This document shows positions 33,965 through 56,507 of a DNA stretch of 64,000 nt, one piece after another. The notes under the pieces are model-generated. The model searched no databases. It saw only the letters and a list, made by a program, of their open reading frames with translations, and was not told where the DNA came from. This DNA is from Dehalococcoidales bacterium (GTDB taxonomy: Bacteria; Chloroflexota; Dehalococcoidia; Dehalococcoidales; UBA5760). The translations under genes were made by a program, and so were the position numbers. The number at the start of each line of letters is the position of its first letter. The stretch's first letter is position 1. The stretch lies in the NCBI GenBank assembly GCA_028716225.1, contig JAQUQE010000002.1, forward strand, positions 140,613 to 204,612, in the 5' to 3' direction.

Positions 33965-34054
33965 CTTTTTTGATTCCTCCTTTTTCTCTGCTACATAGCC
34001 ATGGTTTATTTCGAGTAAGGGAAACCGCCCGGCCTATCATACAGGCCAGACAGC

Positions 34055-34744
34055 TCAATCAACCTTTTCGAATTCACTCTTCGCTGCCCCGCAGACAGGG
34101 CACTTCCAATCGTCAGGTATCTGTTCAAACGGCGTACCGGCAGCTATACCGCCATCCGGATCACCGACAGCCGGATCATATATCCATCCGCAAACCGAAC
34201 ACCTATACTTGGTCATTTTCTTGGATTCCTCCTCTTTTTTCTCTTCTACATAGCTGGGGGCTGTTTTCGGCGTTGTCCCCCGCTTGACCTGATGATAGTA
34301 TTCATACGTCATGCAGGGCTTATCATTCAATACCTCTCCGTCCACTACTTCTCCGATAAAAATAGTGTGGGTACCGACATCCATTTCTCCGGTTACTTTA
34401 GCTTCCAGATACGAGACGGTGTTATCCAAAATCAGCGGTGATCCGGTTTGACCTGATTTATAATTTATGCCCGACAGTTTATTGACTTCCCTGCCTGATT
34501 TGAAGCCGAACTGCCCTATGAAGGACAGAGGAGTATCTTGACCGAGTACCGATACGGCAAATGCGCCGCTTGCTTTGATATATTCCCAGGTTAGATTTGT
34601 CTTATTGATGCTTATGGCAATCGTGGGGGGTTCAGAAGTTATCTGAAAGACGCTGTTAGCGATCTGACCGTTAAGCTTCTCGCCCTTTCGGGATGTCACT
34701 ACATACAAGCCATAACTTAGTTTGTGAAGAGCCTTTGGATTCAC
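34055..34744 (-). CDS. Flavin reductase-like domain fused to C-terminal rubredoxin (high-molecular-weight rubredoxin, Hrb-type)
   Basis: N-terminal FMN-binding split-barrel flavin reductase domain ([10 protein letters not shown]..), an EK-rich linker, then [23 protein letters not shown]. This architecture matches the Hrb partner of FprA described in Moorella. Confidence 0.88.
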
Positions 34745-34826
34745 TGTTCACCTCCTGATACTTTCTTATTATTTTGCACTATCCGTAGTCTAACACTCGA
34801 AACTACACTAAGCCGACCAATCACCT

Positions 34827-35219
34827 TTAACCAGTGACATTTTCAAGTCCCTGGCAATCCAGACAGAGGCCGGTAAACTCCAGATAGTGGTTAGTTACTT
34901 TAAGTCCTGTCCTGCTGGTGATCCTCTCCTCAATCGTGTCATCGACAGGATCATCAATATCCAGAATTCGCCCGCATTGATTACAGCGGAAATGGTAGTG
35001 GTTATTCGTATTACCGTCAAAATGCGCTGTGCCGTTAGACACAAGCATCTCAGATACCTCACCGGTCTCTTTCAGTAATCTTAGATTGCGGTACACCGTA
35101 GCTAAACCTATGTTGGGGATCTCCCGCTTAACCTGCTCGTGTATCCATTCTGCAGTAGGATGTGACGAAGTATTTACCAGTACTCTAAGGATAGCTTCTC
35201 TCTGTATTGATCTCTTCAT
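34827..35219 (-). CDS. Fur family transcriptional regulator (PerR-like by context)
   Basis: Fur-family wHTH (..GLATVYRNLRLL..), HHYHF, and CxxC..CxxC structural zinc site. First gene of the perR-hrb-rd-fprA string. Confidence 0.85.
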   Translation of the reverse strand: MKRSIQREAILRVLVNTSSHPTAEWIHEQVKREIPNIGLATVYRNLRLLKETGEVSEMLVSNGTAHFDGNTNNHYHFRCNQCGRILDIDDPVDDTIEERITSRTGLKVTNHYLEFTGLCLDCQGLENVTG

Positions 35220-35225
35220 ATTAAA

Positions 35226-35250
35226 TATAATAATGATTATCGTTATTATA
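35226..35250. promoter_or_regulatory. AT-rich inverted repeat immediately upstream of the Fur-family gene (candidate Fur/PerR-type operator)
   Basis: TATAATAA (35226-35233), 9-nt spacer TGATTATCG, TTATTATA (35243-35250): perfect 8-bp arms. Contains TAATGATTATC, reminiscent of Fur-box half sites. Confidence 0.4.
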
Positions 35251-35612
35251 ATATCAAAAGTAAAAATTTATGTCAATATTATAATAACCCCAAAGATATG
35301 GAAGATATGCTTTATTTAAGAGTAATACCTTGAGCGCCCGAATATCGAATGCCTGGTCAGTATCTGATCCTTGAGACGGCGATTTTAGTCCTCCATTTGC
35401 ATTAGGTGACATCGCTTATGCCATAATCGTGGTAGAGATCAACGACCTGGGCACCGACTTCACCTCCCCAGTGTACTTCTTTACTTCCACTAGTCCTCCT
35501 GAGTTTATTCATTATGCCGGAAGACTCTAACACATGTATAGATGTTTTTGAGTGGAAGGTCAAAAGAATTATAACTCTACCTAAATTAGGGATAATGAGA
35601 TAGAATAAAAAC

Positions 35613-36743
35613 ATGCAATATGAAACAGCATACTCAATCTCACCAGAAGAATTTACACGTCTTTTTGAAGACGGTTATTTAGTTCTAGGACCTCCTAGAC
35701 CAGTGCAGCAGATTACTAACATAACAAGAGGAGTTTTTTGTATTCAAACCAGCAGTGACATTATTAACTCGACCAAGAACACAACTAAAATGCTCATCCT
35801 ACTAAGACATCTCAAAAAGGATAAACAGATTGAGCTCCTTACTGATAATATAACCTTAATAAAAATGGCAATTAACCGCTATCAGTATCAGAATAAACCG
35901 ATAGGAACCCTAATTAGAGCACATTGCATGGCACTTCATCCGACCCAGCAAATCCATCTACAGAAAACCGTCAGCAGTATTAGCACATATTCAGGATGGC
36001 AGATTCAACAAGGAGACACAAAAAATACCCTTCTAATTATTAGCCGAATCCAGTCTATTGAAAAACAAGATATAGAACAGGAAATCAGTAGAATAAGACA
36101 GTTTATGGATGCTCTCTGCTTGATTTATAAAGTTGGCTTCTTTTTATATCACGTTTCTCATGCACCAATATGTCAATTATCCCCCACGGTTTCCTTTGGT
36201 CAAGCAGAAAGAATGTTAGAACCTATCAAAAAAGAGGATATTATCAGAATAGCGGCTCAGATCCAATTATCGAGGGAAATAGCAACAACCATTCGTGGCT
36301 TAAACCAAGCTTATGTTGATAATTACTATGCTAGCCGCCTTGACCGACTCTGGGCAACTGTTGAAGAACTCTTTTCTGGCTCCGCCAATCATTTATTAAA
36401 ATCGGACGAAATAGCAGCAATTTTAAAATCTATCGAAAGTACAGAACTCGTAAATGACAATAAACGTCTGGGAAAATTTGCTGACTTATTAAAGAATCCA
36501 AACCATTTTCCTGCTAAAGGCCGTAATGAACGAATTTCCGACACCATTTCAAAATTATTAAAAAGAAACCGTGAAGAAACATACGATGAGATACGGAAAT
36601 GTTCTGAAATACGCGGAAAATATGGTCATAACATTCCACAGTATTGGCAGCCAATTGATGAAGCAGAAAAATACTTAAGGAATGTACTCACTGATTATCT
36701 GGATTTATTAACATCTAAAAGGGAGAATGACAACAATATTTAA
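35613..36743 (+). CDS. Hypothetical protein in an AT-rich island; C-terminal Rx4H HEPN-like motif
   Basis: 376-aa ORF, AT-rich, with lysine/asparagine/isoleucine-rich composition unlike its neighbours. The C-terminal helical region contains EIRGKYGHN (R at 36612, H at 36627-36629) followed by an amphipathic helix (EAEKYLRNVLTDYLDLL). I recognise no other family signature. Confidence 0.55.
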   Translation: MQYETAYSISPEEFTRLFEDGYLVLGPPRPVQQITNITRGVFCIQTSSDIINSTKNTTKMLILLRHLKKDKQIELLTDNITLIKMAINRYQYQNKPIGTLIRAHCMALHPTQQIHLQKTVSSISTYSGWQIQQGDTKNTLLIISRIQSIEKQDIEQEISRIRQFMDALCLIYKVGFFLYHVSHAPICQLSPTVSFGQAERMLEPIKKEDIIRIAAQIQLSREIATTIRGLNQAYVDNYYASRLDRLWATVEELFSGSANHLLKSDEIAAILKSIESTELVNDNKRLGKFADLLKNPNHFPAKGRNERISDTISKLLKRNREETYDEIRKCSEIRGKYGHNIPQYWQPIDEAEKYLRNVLTDYLDLLTSKRENDNNI

Positions 36744-36841
36744 ATTCAGCATAGACATTACTTTCTAACATTAATTAAGTTTCTTAGAGACTAATTATGA
36801 TTTCCGAACTGACTAACCCTTTTCGGCAATACTCAACAAGA

Positions 36842-36900: not shown

Positions 36901-38037
36901 TTACCATTGCACGAACATCGGCATTACGACGTGGATATAGTTGTCCACACCCACCGGACGTATCACGCCGGGGCTGGACGGATTGGTAACCTCAAGAGCC
37001 ACCTGCTCTTCACGGAGCACACCGAGCACATCGGATAAGTATTTACCGTTAAAGGCAACCTTCGCCTCTCCACCCTCAACAATAGCATCGATTTCGCCGA
37101 CATCGTCACCCACTTCCTCCGAGCGGGCGGTAATGGTCATCTTGCCCGTGGTCAGATCACCACTGCCGGGGATAATCAGCAGACGGACAATACCGCTGCC
37201 ATCGCGGGCGAAGATAGAGGCTGTCTTAGTCGCCCTCAAGAAGGATGCTACGTCAACCACCGACCGGGTGCTGTAGCTCTGGGGAATGAGCTGAGCATAA
37301 TTGGGGAAAGTTCCCTGGACCATCTGGGATACCAGCTCGATGTTCTTCAGACGGAACAGCGCCTGGCTCTTATTGGGGTCCACTATTATCTCAACAGGCT
37401 CCTCCTGGTCAGCCATAAGCCGGTTCAGTTCAGCGAGGGTCCGTGCCGGAATAATAACCTTGGCCTTTTTAGCGACCGGGAGGACAAGGGGCAGCTTATG
37501 CACCGCCAACCGGAAGCCATCGGCCGCTGCCAGGGTGAGCAAATCACCGTCAAAATCAGCGTCGACTCCGGTAAGAACCGGACGGGACTCTTCCGTAGCC
37601 GCAGCAAAGACAACCTGGGTAATACCCCGCTGCAAGGCCTCCACTTCAACCTTAGTAGTCACTACCGCCTCCACCTTTGGTATCGGTGGGAAATCCGCCG
37701 CATCGACGCCGCTGATACGAGCCTCAAAGCGGGCACACTTCAACTCCAGTGTCTTGGTACGCGGGGAAAGGCTGATTTCAATCTTCTCATTAGGAAGAGA
37801 GGCAACGAACTCAGTGAGCAGCCGTGCCGGAACAGTAATCTCCCCTTCTTCTTCTATTTTGGCACCGATCCAGCAGGAAGTGGCCATCTCCAGATTGGTC
37901 GCCGTAAGTTTCAGCCGGGACTTATCCGTAGCCAGAAGGACATTACCGGTTATCGGTAGGGTTGTGCGCACCGCTACCGCTCTGCCCACCACATTCAATC
38001 CGCGACTCAGGTTCTCCTGAAGGCAAGTCAACCTCAT
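36901..38037 (-). CDS. dnaN: DNA polymerase III beta sliding clamp
   Basis: MRLTCLQENLSRGLNVVGRAV.. N-terminus and three-domain length (378 aa). Start moved to ATG 38037; the track ORF's 48-aa N-terminal extension runs up to within a few nt of the rubredoxin gene and looks non-coding. Confidence 0.93.
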   Translation of the reverse strand: MRLTCLQENLSRGLNVVGRAVAVRTTLPITGNVLLATDKSRLKLTATNLEMATSCWIGAKIEEEGEITVPARLLTEFVASLPNEKIEISLSPRTKTLELKCARFEARISGVDAADFPPIPKVEAVVTTKVEVEALQRGITQVVFAAATEESRPVLTGVDADFDGDLLTLAAADGFRLAVHKLPLVLPVAKKAKVIIPARTLAELNRLMADQEEPVEIIVDPNKSQALFRLKNIELVSQMVQGTFPNYAQLIPQSYSTRSVVDVASFLRATKTASIFARDGSGIVRLLIIPGSGDLTTGKMTITARSEEVGDDVGEIDAIVEGGEAKVAFNGKYLSDVLGVLREEQVALEVTNPSSPGVIRPVGVDNYIHVVMPMFVQW

Positions 38038-38190
38038 AATACACCCCCCAAACGTATACTCCTGTAGCGAAGTAGTATACACCAATCCGGGATGAGAGAC
38101 AAGTCTTTTGTAATTACCCGGTGACCTCATCCCCGCTGAAGCACCCGTGGAATACGGGTGCCAATACCGAACGGCAGCCAAGCGCTCTTT

Positions 38191-43567: not shown

Positions 43568-43923
43568 TGGTGGAGACGGGGGAGAGTTGAACTCCCCGTC
43601 CAAAAGAAGCTACCCAGGATATACTACAAGCTTTTTCAGCTCTTTAATCTCACCCGACCAACCTCTGCTGACCGAGTTCAGTCGAGCCAGTCGATAAATC
43701 TTTCACCACCCTTTATCGACATCGGAGCGGCGGCACCTCAACATTTCGGCACCCAATCCCAACCCATTGAGGCGAGGTCAGGCTGGGCGTGCAACCTATT
43801 TAGCTAGGCTGCAAGAGCGAATTCAGGTTCGCCAATTATCTTTTGCCACCTGTTTTATGAGGTTGGCGGCACCTCAGCTTGCAATCCTGCAGCATACTTC
43901 CCCTGTCGAACCCACGCGTCCCC
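43568..43923 (-). ncRNA. ssrA: tmRNA (SsrA), tag peptide GEPEFALAA
   Basis: 5' GGGGACGCGTGGGTTCGACAGGG.. and 3' ..GGACGGGGAGTTCAACTCTCCCCCGTCTCCACCA (T-arm, acceptor, CCA). The acceptor stem has a G3:U pair. Tag reading frame GGC GAA CCT GAA TTC GCT CTT GCA GCC TAG lies at 43804-43833. Directly downstream of smpB. Confidence 0.93.
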
Positions 43924-52486: not shown

Positions 52487-53080
52487 ATGAAGGTTATTTT
52501 CCTAGAGGATGTACCCCACGTAGCCCGGTCCGGCGATATCAAGGAGGTAGCCGACGGCTACGCCAGAAACTTCCTTATCCCGAAGAAACTGGCGCTGACA
52601 GCCGACTCGGCTGCCATAAAACTGGCAGAAGTACGACGCCGTGCCAAGGCCAGACAGCAAGCTGAGACCGAAGCCGAACTACAAGAACTTGCCCGGCAGA
52701 TAGACGGGAAAGAAATCACCCTGAAAGCACGGGTGGGAAGCAAGGATCGCCTGTATGGCTCGATTACCAGTGCCGATATCTCCGCCGAGATGGAGAAGAG
52801 TGAAGGAATAGTTATCGACAAGAAAAAGATAGACCTTGAGGAACACATCCACCAACTCGGCAGCTACGAGATAACCGTTAGATTGGGCAGTGAGATCACA
52901 CCCAAAATAAAGGTTAAAGTGATAGAGGAAAAGATCGAGGAAGAGGCAGAGGCTAAGGTAGAAGCGAAGACAGAGAAGAAGGTAAAGAAGAAGGCGGAGA
53001 AGAAGACCAAGGAAGAGAAGGAAAACGGGGGAGGAGAAGAAGAGGCAGGGGAGAAGACAGGGGAAGAGGAGCCAGCATAG
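52487..53080 (+). CDS. rplI: 50S ribosomal protein L9 with a ~50-aa Glu/Lys-rich C-terminal extension
   Basis: MKVIFLEDV..GDIKEVADGYARNFLIPKKLA canonical N-domain. The tail is KIEEEAEAKVEAKTEKKVKKKAEKKTKEEKENGGGEEEAGEKTGEEEPA. Confidence 0.9.
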   Translation: MKVIFLEDVPHVARSGDIKEVADGYARNFLIPKKLALTADSAAIKLAEVRRRAKARQQAETEAELQELARQIDGKEITLKARVGSKDRLYGSITSADISAEMEKSEGIVIDKKKIDLEEHIHQLGSYEITVRLGSEITPKIKVKVIEEKIEEEAEAKVEAKTEKKVKKKAEKKTKEEKENGGGEEEAGEKTGEEEPA

Positions 53081-53081
53081 A

Positions 53082-54473
53082 GTGAACGGCGAGAAACTAC
53101 CACCACGTGATACCGATGCTGAGGAAGCAGTAATCGGATCACTATTAATAGACGGCGCAGCAATCTACAAGATCGCCGTCCTGATCAAGCCGTCGGACTT
53201 TTATAGCGACAGAAACTCGCAGATATACGAGGCTTGCCTGTCGCTATACCAGCGCAGCGAAGCGATAAACCAGATTACAGTGGCCCAGGAGCTCGACCGC
53301 CAGGACAAGCTGGAGGCATGTGGCGGCAGCGCCTACTTAAGTCACCTGATATCTATAGTACCTACCTCACTGGATATCGAACACTACGCTCAAATTGTCT
53401 ACCGGCTGTCGATAATGCGCCGCCTGATAGCTGCCAGCAACCAGATTGCAGCCATCGGCTATGAGGCTGACCCCGATGTTGACTCAAGCCTCAGTCGCGC
53501 CGAGGAGGTCCTATTCAAGATACGCCAGGGTCAGGACACCCGGGATCTGGTTCCTATCCGCCAGGTGCTGGACAAATACTTTGAGGCCACTGTCCCCGGG
53601 ACAGCCGCTTCAGAAGGACAGCCTGAATACATACCTTATATCAAATCAAGCTTCACCGGTCTGGACGATTTCCTCAGCGGGTTCCAGCGCTCCGACCTGA
53701 TAATTGCTGCCGGTAGACCCAGCATGGGTAAGACCAGCCTGGTCCTGAACATCGCTCGAAATGCCGCCGTGGAGCAGGGCGCCTGCGTGGCCATCTTCAG
53801 TCTGGAGATGTCACGAGAGTCGCTGGTACTCCGCCTGCTTTCCAGCGAGTCGGGAGTAAACCTGAGCCGGGTCCGTTTCGGGCTGCACGGCGAGGCGGAG
53901 GAAAGAAAGGTTATGGACGCTACGGGTATCCTCGCCGAGGCACCGATCTACATCGATGATTCCCCGCAGCTCCGGGTAGTAGAGATCAGGAGCAAGCTAC
54001 GTCAGCTCTATCATGATCGAGGCGTTGATCTCGTGATCATTGACTACCTGCAGCTGATCCAGGGGGAGGGCAAAAGGGAAAACAGGGTCCAGGAAATCAG
54101 CTATATCACACGATATCTGAAGGGAATAGCCCGTGAGCTTAATGTGCCGGTGATAGCGGCATCCCAGCTCAGCCGGGCGGTGGAATGGCGGACTTCACAC
54201 AGACCCCAGCTATCCGACCTGCGAGAGAGCGGCAGTATTGAGCAGGACGCCGATATCGTCCTCTTCATCTACCGGGACGAGGTACGCTATTCCAGCCAGC
54301 AGGAGTGGGAAGCGGAGCATCCCGGAGAAAAATACCCTCCTCCGGCCGAGGTCATCATTGCCAAGCACCGTAACGGCCCTACCGGACAGATAAACCTGCG
54401 CTTCGTCCCCCGACTGGCCAAGTTTGAGAATATTCCCGAAAATATTACCACCGCCGAGCCGAGCCTGTTATGA
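53082..54473 (+). CDS. dnaB: Replicative DNA helicase
   Basis: PPRDTDAEEAVIGSLLID.. N-domain, Walker A GRPSMGKTS, ..IIDYLQLI... GTG start directly after rplI. Confidence 0.95.
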   Translation: MNGEKLPPRDTDAEEAVIGSLLIDGAAIYKIAVLIKPSDFYSDRNSQIYEACLSLYQRSEAINQITVAQELDRQDKLEACGGSAYLSHLISIVPTSLDIEHYAQIVYRLSIMRRLIAASNQIAAIGYEADPDVDSSLSRAEEVLFKIRQGQDTRDLVPIRQVLDKYFEATVPGTAASEGQPEYIPYIKSSFTGLDDFLSGFQRSDLIIAAGRPSMGKTSLVLNIARNAAVEQGACVAIFSLEMSRESLVLRLLSSESGVNLSRVRFGLHGEAEERKVMDATGILAEAPIYIDDSPQLRVVEIRSKLRQLYHDRGVDLVIIDYLQLIQGEGKRENRVQEISYITRYLKGIARELNVPVIAASQLSRAVEWRTSHRPQLSDLRESGSIEQDADIVLFIYRDEVRYSSQQEWEAEHPGEKYPPPAEVIIAKHRNGPTGQINLRFVPRLAKFENIPENITTAEPSLL

Positions 54474-55183
54474 AGCAGTTTACCGGGTTTCCCCCCAGAA
54501 TGCAGTACACCCCGATACCCAACCTCTTCTTCAGTACTCTTCTGCCTCAAATCAGTGATATGGCGGAGCTTAAGACGACCCTCCATATTCTCGCCGCTCT
54601 CTACCGCAAGAAGGGCTACCCTCGCTACGTAAGCTACCGGGAGCTAGCGGCCATCCCCAGTCTGATGCATAGCCTTACCGGCACGGCAGAACCGCCTGCA
54701 GAGGTACTGCGCAGGGCGCTGGCGATGGCAACCAGAAGAGAGACCATCCTTCATATAGCACTGGATAAAGACGGGGTAACCGAGGATATCTATTTCCTTA
54801 ATACCGAGTCCGACAGAAAGACCATCAACATGATTAAGAACGGTGATCTCTCTCTGGGCAATCTCAGCACCGGGGGAAACAGCGATGCCCTGATTACGGA
54901 ACGGTCCGACATCTTCACCCTGTATGAAGAGAACATCGGTATGCTCACCCCCTTGATTTCCGAAGAGCTGAGCCAGGCAGAGAAGCTATACCCCGCCGGA
55001 TGGATAACGGATGCTATCAAAGAAGCCGCCTCCCTTAACAAACGGAGCTGGCGGTACATCTCAAGAATTCTGGAGCGCTGGCGTCAGGAAGGAAGGAGTG
55101 ATGGAACACCTGGGCAAGATTCTAAGAAAACAGACCTGGACAGATACGTCAACCAGAAATACGGACACATGTTCCGGCGCTGA
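54470..55183 (+). CDS. DnaD-domain (DnaB_2/DnaD C-terminal type) replication protein
   Basis: ..IFTLYEENIGMLTPLISEELSQAEKLYPAGWITDAIKEAASLNKRSWRYISRILERWRQEG is the hallmark DnaD-like C-terminal domain. ATGA overlap with dnaB. Confidence 0.7.
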   Translation: MKQFTGFPPRMQYTPIPNLFFSTLLPQISDMAELKTTLHILAALYRKKGYPRYVSYRELAAIPSLMHSLTGTAEPPAEVLRRALAMATRRETILHIALDKDGVTEDIYFLNTESDRKTINMIKNGDLSLGNLSTGGNSDALITERSDIFTLYEENIGMLTPLISEELSQAEKLYPAGWITDAIKEAASLNKRSWRYISRILERWRQEGRSDGTPGQDSKKTDLDRYVNQKYGHMFRR

Positions 55184-56507
55184 AGAAGCGGAAGCCGAAC
55201 CAGGCTCAAACTGCCCTGTATGCAAAGGTGCCGGTTTTGTTCACCCGATTCTCTCCTCGGGAAAACCGGACTTCAGCCGGGTTATCCCCTGCCGCTGCGT
55301 AAAAGAATCGTTGACCAGAGAGCGCCAGACCCACCTGATAAAGTACAGCAACCTGGGGGCACTAACCCGCTTCACCTTCAGTACCCTGATCCCTGAAGGA
55401 AGGAGCGGCAACCCGGCAAACCAGGAACAATTCGCCCAGGCCTGCCAGGCCGCCCGTACCTTTGCCGGCGAACCCAGGGGATGGCTGATCCTGACCGGTC
55501 CCAGCGGCTGCGGCAAGACCCACCTGGCGGCGGCAATCGTTAATGAGCGCATCAGCCAGGGGCACCCCGCCTTCTTCATCTCCGCTCCCGACCTCCTCGA
55601 CCGTCTGCGTTCCGCCTTCAACCCCGACAGCGAAATGCCTTATGACGAGTTCTTCGACCAGGTGCGCAATGCACCGCTGCTGGTCCTGGACGATTTGGGT
55701 GCCCAGACCAGTACCCCCTGGGCTAAAGAAAAACTGGAGCAGTTGCTGAACTACCGCTTCAACAGCGAGCTGCCCACCGTGATCATTCCTATCATCGCTA
55801 TTGAACATCTCAACGACCGGATACGCACCCGTCTCACCGACCCCGATTTGTGCCGGACGTACGGCATCGAGGAAAAGGAAACTCCGTCGGAATATAGCTG
55901 GGCCCCCGAGTTCGAACTGCAAAAGAGCATGACCTTCGACACATTCGACCACGAGCGGCTTAACCTGCCCCGGGAGCAACGCGAGAACCTGAAACATGTC
56001 TTCGAGGGAGTCTTTCGATTCGCCCGCTCACCGGAGGGGTGGCTGATACTTCAAGGGGCCAACGGCTGCGGTAAGACCCACCTGGCGGCAGCCGTAGTTA
56101 ACTACTGCTACCAGGCCAAAAAACCGGCCCTGTTTGTGGTGGTACCCGAGTTTCTCGACCACCTGCGTTCCGCCTTCAACCCGGAGAGCAGGGTTTCCTA
56201 CGATCAGTTGTTCGAAAAGGTAAAGACAGCGCCGCTGCTCGTCCTGGACGACTTCGGGGAACAGACCACCACACCCTGGGCGCAGGAAAAGCTGTACCAG
56301 GTTATCAACTACCGCTATAACGCCAAGCTATCGACAGTAATCACCACCCGTCATACCATGGATGAAATCGACAGTCCGATTAGCTCACGCCTGGTAGATG
56401 CCAAGCTCAGCACGCCGTTTATTATTACCGTCCCCGATTACCGGAGTGACCGCCAGCCCGGCCCGAAGTCGAGACCCAGCGGCGGCAGGAAGGAACGCTG
56501 GGGCTAA
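55101..56507 (+). CDS. DnaC/DnaI-like helicase-loader ATPase with two tandem AAA+ modules and an N-terminal Cys motif
   Basis: Module 1: [31 protein letters not shown]. Module 2: [31 protein letters not shown]. They are offset by exactly 558 nt in one continuous ORF. N-terminal CPVCKG..IPCRC resembles the DnaI zinc domain. Start at ATG 55101 (GGAAGGAG RBS) implies an 83-nt overlap with the upstream gene, so the start is uncertain. Confidence 0.8.

Follow-up and report, generated by a model that had tools for sequence, protein, structure and literature searches.

What is understood of helicase loading in bacteria comes from homo-oligomeric loaders, namely DnaC, DnaI, DciA and lambda P, whose ATP sites are chemically identical, so that single sites can be probed only with mixed mutants. 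In Escherichia coli DnaC (6QEL/6QEM; PRK07952) each chain carries one AAA+ module, with K112 in Walker A, E170 in Walker B, N203 as sensor I, R216 as arginine coupler, R220 as arginine finger and R237 as sensor II, while K143, F146, S177 and Y179 contact single-stranded DNA (ssDNA) (PMC8213410). Bacillus subtilis DnaI also has a single AAA+ module, behind an N-domain that is described as binding zinc via C67, C70 and H84 (PMC1636449), and the helicase BstDnaB6 binds three DnaI dimers, with the two monomers of a dimer contacting the helicase differently (PMC3791466). Here we analyse a stretch of 64,000 nucleotides from a Dehalococcoidales bacterium (GenBank assembly GCA_028716225.1, contig JAQUQE010000002.1, positions 140,613 to 204,612 of the forward strand), hereafter the window, in which a single open reading frame (ORF) behind dnaB and a dnaD-like gene encodes a DnaC/DnaI-family protein with two tandem AAA+ modules. 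This gene is very probably the chromosomal DnaB loader, with an old tandem duplication, and our preferred reading, to which we give a probability of roughly 0.65, is that it encodes the chromosomal DnaC/DnaI-family DnaB loader of Dehalococcoidia and that the protein acts as a hard-wired AAA+ heterodimer.

When compared with E. coli DnaC, each module of the window loader shows the same AAA+ fold (TM 0.63, rmsd 2.7 Å) and the Walker A and B motifs, the module 1 arginines R240 and R244, four residues apart, align with R216 and R220, module 2 has a sensor-II arginine, and equivalents of K143, F146 and Y179 are present; action on DnaB is presumed for the window protein. However, there are two modules per chain rather than one, a zinc ribbon stands in place of the helical DnaB-binding N-domain, neither module has a polar sensor I, Walker B reads DD and not DE, the DnaC equivalog model gives ~114 bits against a cutoff of 357, and the gene comes after one for a DnaD-domain protein, of which E. 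coli has none. With B. subtilis DnaI the loader shares a Cys-rich, putatively zinc-binding N-terminal region ~70–100 residues ahead of Walker A and a genetic link to a DnaD/DnaB_2-domain protein (PF07261 family), but DnaI has a single AAA+ module, its equivalog model gives 129 bits against 228, and its N-domain uses two cysteines and a histidine as noted above, whereas the window N-domain has four cysteines. A covalent tandem would make pairing of the kind seen in the three-dimer arrangement of DnaI (PMC3791466) permanent. As a whole, then, the protein departs from canonical DnaC and DnaI in the number of modules per chain, in the lack of a polar sensor I and in falling short of both equivalog cutoffs.

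The closest sequence family of each module is that of the single-module loaders of Firmicutes and phages (PRK08116/PRK06835), although the phage and viral relatives listed have one module and the Chloroflexota protein matches the PRK08116 profile twice. IstB (PDB 5BQ5) likewise belongs to the AAA+ initiator clade, and its family, PF01695, is the top Pfam family of the loader. However, IstB has one module per chain, and the window loader lacks an IstA partner or mobile-element context and stays below the IstB equivalog cutoff. In work by Arias-Palomo and Berger from 2015, IstB is said to form a two-layer decamer that clamps DNA, a possible precedent for double-layer assemblies in this clade. 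The type II tandem AAA+ proteins (p97/Cdc48, NSF and NVL) also have two AAA+ modules per chain, often one active and one degenerate site, but they belong to another AAA+ clade and have lid domains and stacked D1/D2 rings, whereas the window modules are lid-free and have a two-helix insertion.

Genes for homologues of the window loader are already in the databases, named only 'ATP-binding protein' or 'DNA replication protein DnaC', with the double module unmarked. In Brezellec et al. 2016 the genes of Chloroflexi are entered as ordinary dna[CI], and 'tandem' and 'duplicat' are absent from the main text of that paper (PMC5109545). Our full-text literature searches found no published description of a tandem or multi-module DnaC/DnaI loader, and while the parts are ordinary, the covalent two-module arrangement is unusual and apparently undescribed. 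A natural loader with fused, diverged modules fixes the order of its ATP sites and makes each site mutable on its own, and the lineages that carry it supply contrasting states, module 1 being canonical in Anaerolineae and having lost its sensors in Dehalococcoidia. It also poses a testable question of stoichiometry, three or six docking domains on the DnaB hexamer, and it shows that the DnaD-plus-loader scheme known from Firmicutes also reaches a distant phylum, the one to which the organohalide-respiring Dehalococcoidia belong.

Two AAA+ modules in one reading frame and their distribution

The loader ORF holds two complete sets of ATPase motifs, with Walker A reading GPSGCGKTH from nt 55497 in module 1 and GANGCGKTH from nt 56055 in module 2, and Walker B reading LLVLDDLG from nt 55677 and LLVLDDFG from nt 56235, respectively. 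The modules are offset by 186 amino acids, or exactly 558 nt, with no stop codon or frame change between them. BLASTP aligned module 1 with module 2 without a gap (77 of 166 residues identical, 46%; E = 7e-54), which is far beyond chance, and a scan for direct repeats at 558-nt spacing picked out 199 nt at 72% identity and 83 nt at 75%. Identity between the modules is 56% in DNA and 42–46% in protein. In the whole window the 20-mer CTGCGTTCCGCCTTCAACCC has two occurrences only, at 55605 and 56163, and a second string, GGCTGCGGYAAGACCCACCTGGCGGC, is shared at 55506 and 56064. An earlier note on this DNA had proposed an internal duplication that left two complete DnaC/DnaI-like modules in one ORF, and had named self-alignment of protein and gene as one check; both the motifs at their sites and the 166-residue gapless match with its 558-nt-spaced repeats bear the proposal out.

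We modelled the loader with AlphaFold2 (AF2) using 71 homologues, which gave a mean predicted local distance difference test score (pLDDT) of 78.7 and a predicted TM score (pTM) of 0.47, with pLDDT 80–95 in each module. Each module runs through strand 1, the Walker A helix, strand 2, a two-helix insertion, strand 3 (Walker B), a helix, strand 4, the box VII helix and strand 5, and no lid helices follow strand 5 in the model. As modelled, the insertion between strands 2 and 3 (helices 162–171 and 181–189 between strands 158–161 and 194–199 in module 1; helices 348–357 and 367–376 in module 2) matches the initiator-specific motif of the DnaA/DnaC clade. Between the modules the linker falls to pLDDT <50 at residues 260–264. 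The best rigid Foldseek match was E. coli DnaC in the DnaBC–ssDNA complex (6qem_G; TM 0.63, rmsd 2.7 Å, 192 columns), and phmmer against the PDB returned DnaC and DnaI at E = 1e-13 to 1e-11. Ranked by E-value alone, p97, Cdc48 and NVL lead the Foldseek output because both modules align to them locally; a p97-like stacked arrangement was not supported, as these matches have a TM of ~0.25 and an rmsd of 15–20 Å, though the orientation of the modules in the model is itself uncertain (pTM 0.47).

Profile searches gave a similar picture. The Pfam families PF01695 (IstB_IS21; top match, E = 1.7e-27), PF00308 and AAA each match the loader twice, and of the loader models only the subfamily model NF005992 (PRK08116) was passed, in two stretches, its 205 bits exceeding a cutoff of 189. 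The equivalog cutoffs for DnaC (NF005931, 113.6 against 357 bits) and DnaI (NF006505, 129.1 against 228) were both missed. Both modules belong to the initiator-clade AAA+ group of DnaC, DnaI and IstB.

Ahead of the modules, residues 1–35 are disordered in the AF2 model bar one short helix, and the zinc ribbon that follows, a small β-ribbon in the model, leads into a long helix at residues 65–81. The CPVCKGAG sequence of this N-domain fits CxxCxGxG, and among 46 diverse homologues C38, C41 and C64 never vary and C66 is kept in at least 90%. Pfam searches with residues 1–110 gave only sub-threshold matches to Anti-TRAP and DnaJ CxxCxGxG, a profile of 34 N-domains run against PDB sequences gave only weak matches to UvrA, DM-domain and DnaJ zinc-knuckle proteins, and the N-domain modelled alone (AF2, a poor model with pLDDT 63) had no Foldseek match below E = 3. 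The zinc ribbon is presumed to be the helicase-binding domain.

The same architecture is widespread in Chloroflexota. Among ~5.8 billion proteins searched there were at least 120 homologues, 445–475 aa long, from many independent Chloroflexota/Dehalococcoidia assemblies, at 66–97% identity and with query coverage of 88–100% (~95% or more for nearly all), and a simple pattern detected two Walker A and two Walker B motifs in 100 of 120. Likewise, 1.84 billion cluster representatives (50% identity clusters) yielded 614 matches at E ≤ 1e-30, and more than 100 of those listed span the query in one stretch (32–50% identity, 420–490 aa), the names of the distant representatives saying only Dehalococcoidia or Chloroflexota. 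Species-representative genomes gave at least 334 stretches that code for a relative, and all locus counts given here are for the best 80, which belong either to Dehalococcoidia/Dehalococcoidales or to Anaerolineae, the latter including Anaerolinea thermophila, Thermanaerothrix, Ardenticatenaceae, Caldilineaceae and Promineifilaceae. Together with the window these make 81 sequences, two of which are cut by a contig end, leaving 79 complete ones, 49 from Dehalococcoidia and 30 from Anaerolineae. The survey of single- versus double-module relatives called for in the earlier note came out uniformly, with two modules in 79/79, and an N-terminal zinc ribbon followed by two modules recurs in hundreds of independent assemblies. 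The tandem layout is fixed in at least Dehalococcoidia and Anaerolineae.

Some relatives have more than two modules. The 827-aa protein P0121 (L081:5001-7484) has one zinc ribbon and then four modules, pairwise 41–64% identical; its gene lies on a 64-kb contig, behind a DnaB_2 gene that itself follows a dnaB with an intein. Two N-terminally truncated proteins (P0271 and P0273) have at least three modules each. A further protein, P0122, repeats a C-terminal segment and has three modules, two of which share 83% identity; this may be a recent duplication or a misassembly. Relatives in phages are single-module: 297 GenBank phage records matched, with every listed place a single module of ~620–770 nt (tblastn, 27–33% identity), and in IMG/VR the best 80 of 341 were likewise all single-module, with matches of at most ~870 nt. 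In the collections searched, concatenation is therefore a feature of cellular Chloroflexota.

ATP sites and models of helicase loading

We assigned the state of each module from motif anchors against E. coli DnaC and counted these states over the 49 Dehalococcoidia and 30 Anaerolineae loci (Table 1). Both window modules have the Walker A and B motifs of DnaC/DnaI-type loaders, and neither has the polar sensor I; as for the arginine finger and sensor II, module 2 has both and module 1 only the former. The earlier note had read module 1 as having lost part of its C-terminal region, but there is no deletion, only substitutions at sensor I (Ile231) and at the sensor-II 'PDYR' motif. Module 1 is thus untruncated, and in Dehalococcoidia its ATP site is without sensor II and has a variable sensor I. 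That the two modules are non-equivalent holds good, since their sensor states differ. In Anaerolineae, module 1 is fully canonical, with sensor I Asn, sensor II Arg, coupler and finger all at 30/30.

Table 1. Features of the loader gene and its neighbours in the window, with residue states of the two modules. Letters and numbers in the counts denote class (D, Dehalococcoidia; A, Anaerolineae) and module (1 or 2); E. coli DnaC residues are in brackets.
Feature	Coordinates	Strand	Details
Tandem two-module DnaC/DnaI-family loader, 468 aa + stop	55101..56507	+	PF01695, PF00308 and NF005992 each in 2 stretches
Four-cysteine zinc ribbon	55212..55298	+	C38-x2-C41 ... C64-x-C66; small β-ribbon in AF2 model
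AAA+ module 1, residues 91-255	55371..55865	+	Walker A 55497-55520 (K139), Walker B 55677-55694 (D197 D198)
20-nt string, module 1 copy	55605..55624	+	Encodes LRSAFNP; aligns with E. coli DnaC K143/F146, ssDNA-contact residues in the initiator-specific motif
Inter-module linker, residues 256-276	55866..55928	+	Conserved motif 'EY.W..EFELQK' ahead of module 2 start 'MTF'
AAA+ module 2, residues 277-448	55929..56444	+	Walker A 56055-56078 (K325), Walker B 56235-56252 (D383 D384)
20-nt string, module 2 copy	56163..56182	+	LRSAFNP
Basic disordered C-terminal tail	56445..56504	+	AF2 pLDDT <50 at residues 452-468
Walker A Lys/Thr			Module 1 K139, T140; module 2 K325, T326; invariant 79/79, both modules
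Walker B			Module 1 D197, D198; module 2 D383, D384; first Asp invariant 79/79, both modules
ssDNA contact (K143)			Module 1 R170; module 2 R356; invariant in both modules over 79 loci
ssDNA contact (F146)			Module 1 F173; module 2 F359; F359 invariant, F173 not among conserved columns (71-sequence alignment)
ssDNA contact (Y179)			Module 1 W207; module 2 W393; invariant in both modules over 79 loci
Sensor I (N203)	55791-55793; 56349-56351		Module 1 Ile231; module 2 Arg417; A1 Asn 30/30; D1 I14, D8, N7, A7, S5; module 2 variable in both classes
Arg coupler (R216)	56376-56378 (module 2)		Module 1 R240; module 2 Pro426; Arg in D1 42/49, A1 30/30, D2 28/49 (Pro 10/49), A2 24/30
Box VII Arg finger (R220)	55830-55832; 56388-56390		Module 1 R244; module 2 R430; module 1 70/79, module 2 79/79
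Sensor II (R237)	56442-56444 (module 2)		Module 1 absent (Pro262 at aligned place); module 2 R448 in 'PDYR'; A1 30/30, D1 0/49, D2 42/49, A2 21/30
83-nt dual-coding overlap	55101..55183	+	dnaD-like 3' end / loader 5' end; loader peptide MEHLGKIL...
rplI, ribosomal protein L9	52487..53080	+	ORF; heads conserved run rplI-dnaB-dnaD-like-loader
dnaB, replicative DNA helicase, 463 aa, intein-free	53082..54473	+	PF00772 + PF03796 (E = 1.7e-98); TIGR00665
DnaD-domain protein, 237 aa	54470..55183	+	PF07261 E = 5.3e-9; TIGR01446 DnaD_dom 48 bits, cutoff 25
HNH endonuclease gene, 167 aa	56594..57097	+	PF14279 + PF01844; directly 3' of loader

Across the 158 modules, an arginine at sensor I and an arginine at the coupler position are mutually exclusive, with a coupler arginine in 0/16 modules that have Arg at sensor I and in 124/142 of the others. 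This covariation has a Fisher probability of 7e-13, uncorrected for phylogeny, and it has arisen in four lineages or more, among module 1 and module 2 sequences alike. In DnaC the coupler R216 contacts sensor I N203 (PMC8213410), and since the two positions touch, the exclusivity reads as relocation of the same arginine; by its residues, window module 2 (R417, P426) looks like a carrier of the relocated coupler arginine. Measured against the locus L001, module 1 has a ratio of nonsynonymous to synonymous divergence (dN/dS) of 0.10 and module 2 one of 0.06, and both modules are under purifying selection.

In the supplement of Brezellec et al. 2016, the Chloroflexi listed have one dna[CI] gene and no dciA (PMC5109545), so that, on that listing, the window gene would be the expected DnaB loader. 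If it acts as DnaC/DnaI-type loaders do, the window protein would bind DnaB and use ATP to place it on ssDNA. In the mechanism that we favour, the zinc-ribbon N-domain would dock on DnaB, and both modules would bind ATP and ssDNA and join one DnaC-like spiral, making each chain a hard-wired heterodimer. On the simplest count three chains would then supply six modules, an arrangement that would mirror, by analogy, the three DnaI dimers per helicase hexamer, although we put forward this specific 3:6 shared spiral only tentatively, at odds somewhat short of even. Two kinds of ATP site would alternate around such a spiral. The module 1 site, with both sensors lost, would probably serve ATP binding and assembly with little turnover, and the module 2 site, with sensor II and the relocated arginine, would be the likelier place of hydrolysis and release. 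It is in any case reasonable to infer, as the earlier note did, that a covalent dimer would alter the stoichiometry on the DnaB hexamer.

Several points weigh against this picture. Neither window module has a canonical polar sensor I, and because the DnaC substitution N203A abolishes ATPase activity (PMC8213410), ATP turnover in the window protein may be weak or differently wired. With only one N-domain per chain, a 3:6 complex would leave half of the usual DnaB docking sites empty, and the 3- and 4-module variants found at the same genomic position do not suit a closed six-module ring built from whole chains. Furthermore, no relation between the N-domain and the helicase-binding domains of DnaC or DnaI was detected with Pfam, the 34-sequence profile or Foldseek, and the AF2 model leaves the relative orientation of the modules unfixed (pTM 0.47).

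Some of these points favour the main rival, rather unlikely on balance, in which six chains sit on each DnaB hexamer, with one zinc ribbon at every docking site and 12 modules in all, with module 1 forming the spiral by the helicase and module 2 a second tier or an ssDNA filament; a related version has an open-ended DnaA/DnaC-like filament without fixed stoichiometry. The single N-domain per chain suits it, in that E. coli DnaC fills six DnaB sites (PMC8213410), the variants with three or four modules behind one zinc ribbon fit tiers or filaments more easily, and the linker is flexible in the AF2 model. However, DnaI sits on its helicase as three dimers with non-equivalent partners (PMC3791466), and both window modules have the inward-facing ssDNA-contact residues and the trans-acting arginine, as expected of neighbours in one spiral. 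The AF2 model likewise shows no p97-like stacking by the comparison with p97, Cdc48 and NVL (TM ~0.25, rmsd 15–20 Å), which is weak evidence given the low-confidence orientation.

The sensor losses in module 1 also bear on a less probable explanation, that only module 2 works as the loader ATPase and that module 1 is a decayed pseudo-ATPase, serving as a spacer or as an auto-inhibitory or regulatory domain; a regulatory role had been suggested in the earlier note. Window module 1 has Ile at sensor I and no 'PDYR', the sensor-II Arg is missing from module 1 in 49/49 Dehalococcoidia, and the box VII Arg is also missing in 9/49. Against decay stand the Walker A Lys/Thr, the first Walker B Asp and the ssDNA-contact Arg and Trp of module 1, all invariant in 79/79, and a dN/dS near that of module 2; window module 2 is itself without a polar sensor I (Arg417). 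Moreover, in Anaerolineae it is module 1 that is canonical and module 2 that has the variable sensor I, so module 1 is no general pseudo-domain.

Returning to the heterodimeric loader, a broader proposition can be entertained, though with odds on the low side: Chloroflexota may load DnaB with covalently concatenated AAA+ units (two, sometimes three or four) behind one zinc ribbon, with a stoichiometry and symmetry unlike the 6:6 DnaB–DnaC complex and with permanently non-equivalent sites, a relocated coupler arginine among their differences, as a bacterial analogue of the eukaryotic loaders ORC/Cdc6 and RFC, which are hetero-oligomers with specialised sites. If true, such a complex might consist of three chains on a hexamer, held by only three docking contacts, or might contain 12 modules.

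Age of the duplication

Identity between the modules of the window protein is 0.435, and its excess over cross-genome comparisons of module 1 with module 2 is 0.000. We built distance-based neighbour-joining (NJ) trees, and in the tree of all 158 modules no module 1 and module 2 of the same genome were sisters. Mean identities between groups were 0.458 for D1–A1, 0.489 for D2–A2, 0.432 for D1–D2 and 0.503 for A1–A2 (labels as in Table 1). Quartets drawn from four different genomes supported duplication before the class split in 50%, class-wise grouping in 29% and the third topology in 21%, and a bootstrap of the group-mean four-point test placed the three topologies in the same order (80/17/3). 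These sequence comparisons favour, at moderate strength, one internal duplication that predates the split between Dehalococcoidia and Anaerolineae. Counting the other way, the quartets support one old duplication no more than moderately, with a short internal branch, and between LRSxF and Walker B, in the middle third of the module, class-wise grouping is preferred (48% against 38%). No single NJ bipartition split all module 1 from all module 2 sequences, and a clean clade was recovered only for module 1 of the 49 Dehalococcoidia loci. The class-wise signal in the middle third may reflect old partial conversion or parallel co-evolution. Some states are common to both modules within a class, with LRS.. 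in Dehalococcoidia and LRA.. and YGCGKT in Anaerolineae.

The 20-nt identity between the window modules had been taken in the earlier note as a possible sign that the copies were homogenised by conversion. A naive simulation from the codon usage of the window seemed to agree, with a probability of 0.009 for a run of at least 20 nt and 40 shared codons against 27.5 expected. However, this signal vanished in a cross-genome control that set module 1 here against module 2 elsewhere and the reverse, at similar G+C content of third codon positions (GC3; n = 60): the same-codon fraction was 0.474±0.072 against 0.533 within the window gene, and 10% of comparisons contained a run of at least 20 nt, the longest being 36 nt. 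Such runs are thus ordinary between genomes, and with an amino-acid identity excess of zero we rejected gene conversion as the source of the 20-nt identity in the window genome; conservation of the LRSAFNP motif in both modules and a GC3 of 70% in this gene are enough to explain the shared 20-mer.

The earlier note had further asked for an assembly-generated duplication to be excluded. A copy made by an assembler would be near-identical, whereas the modules have diverged by 44% in DNA, and the architecture is present in at least 120 homologues, more than 100 listed cluster representatives and all 79 complete loci. Assembly artefact and recent duplication are refuted. Taken together, a tandem that is assembly-made or very recent, or that consists of paralogous copies under ongoing conversion, could draw on the naive simulation with its excess of shared codons, on the class-shared module states and on the 48% of quartets that group the middle third by class, but it is highly improbable against a DNA identity of 56% and a protein identity of 42–46%, recurrence in hundreds of assemblies, the loss of the signal in the cross-genome control and the absence of sister paralogue pairs.

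Gene neighbourhood and overlap with the dnaD-like gene

The loader is the last of four co-directional genes (rplI, dnaB, the dnaD-like gene and the loader ORF; 52487-56507, + strand). The window DnaB scores 512 bits against TIGR00665 (cutoff 385), and with the PF07261/TIGR01446 matches of the dnaD-like gene product and the module matches of the loader, the dnaB/dnaD-like/loader cluster described in the earlier note stands. As a member of the B. subtilis DnaD/DnaB family, the DnaD-domain protein may act as a co-loader or adaptor. In ~78/80 loci dnaB is followed by a DnaD-domain gene and then by the loader, and an L9 match lies 5′ of dnaB in nearly all Dehalococcoidia loci; the loader thus has the genomic association with the replicative helicase that marks DnaC/DnaI-type loaders. 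That the gene is instead an IstB-like IS21 helper or a prophage replication gene is hardly credible, for although PF01695 (IstB_IS21) is the top Pfam match, an HNH endonuclease gene lies 3′ and DnaC/DnaI genes are thought to be phage-derived (PMC5109545), the chromosomal synteny extends over two classes with L9 and dnaB, and with holB nearby in Dehalococcoidales, no transposase ORF is adjacent, the NCBIfam IstB equivalog NF038214 gives 132 bits against a cutoff of 200, and the listed places of the 297 phage records and the best 80 IMG/VR loci are all single-module.

The mechanical loader ORF opens at 55011, but the likely start is the ATG at 55101, with a purine tract, GGAAGGAAGGAG, just 5′ of it, and the stop codon of the dnaD-like gene lies at 55181-55183. 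With this start the 83-nt overlap given in the earlier note has the right coordinates, and the placement of start and stop is conserved in relatives, which keep a 'MEH[IL]x[ED][IF]L' start 35–42 aa before the CxxC motif and a DnaD-like C-terminus 'KYGHMVRR', followed by the stop, that ends 13–40 nt before it. The N-terminal consensus of the loader, 'MExLxxIL', persists across 46 diverse homologues, down to 31% identity. Synonymous divergence (dS) in the loader frame is depressed across the overlap, as is expected of dual coding. By these sequence features the overlap is real, and because the loader starts within the dnaD-like gene, coupled translation of the DnaD-like protein and the loader is likely. 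In P0088 (671 aa), from a 2.3-kb JGI contig, the ORF call joins a DnaD-domain protein to a two-module loader; the junction sits where other loci have the two-frame overlap, and it could be a real fusion or a frameshift error in the contig.

The HNH endonuclease gene directly 3′ of the loader is found there in ~12 Dehalococcoidia loci, e.g. L001, L008, L010, L012, L020, L024 and L030; we treat it as genomic context and assign it no role in the loader cluster. Beyond it, on the opposite strand, are ORFs of 279 aa, 339 aa (holB-like by eye) and 441 aa (lysA-like by eye). In some Anaerolineae-type relatives the DnaB match includes an intein (PF14890) or is interrupted (L081:2433-4259; split in L056 and L060). 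One locus, L041 (JAJPGT010000047.1), comes from a metagenome-assembled genome labelled 'Proteobacteria bacterium' and has a Chloroflexota-type rplI, dnaB and two-module loader, with no DnaD-like match; this contig is probably mislabelled or mis-binned.

Elsewhere in the window, dnaN (DNA polymerase III beta; 36901-38181, − strand) has no adjacent dnaA, its neighbours being flavin reductase and SufBD/ABC genes. The GC minimum of the window, 0.425, falls at 34–36 kb, in a region (34000-36800) with genes for a Fur-family regulator, a flavin reductase–rubredoxin fusion and a 376-aa ORF (35613-36743) without a Pfam match. A tmRNA gene at 43568-43923 (− strand) encodes the tag peptide GEPEFALAA.

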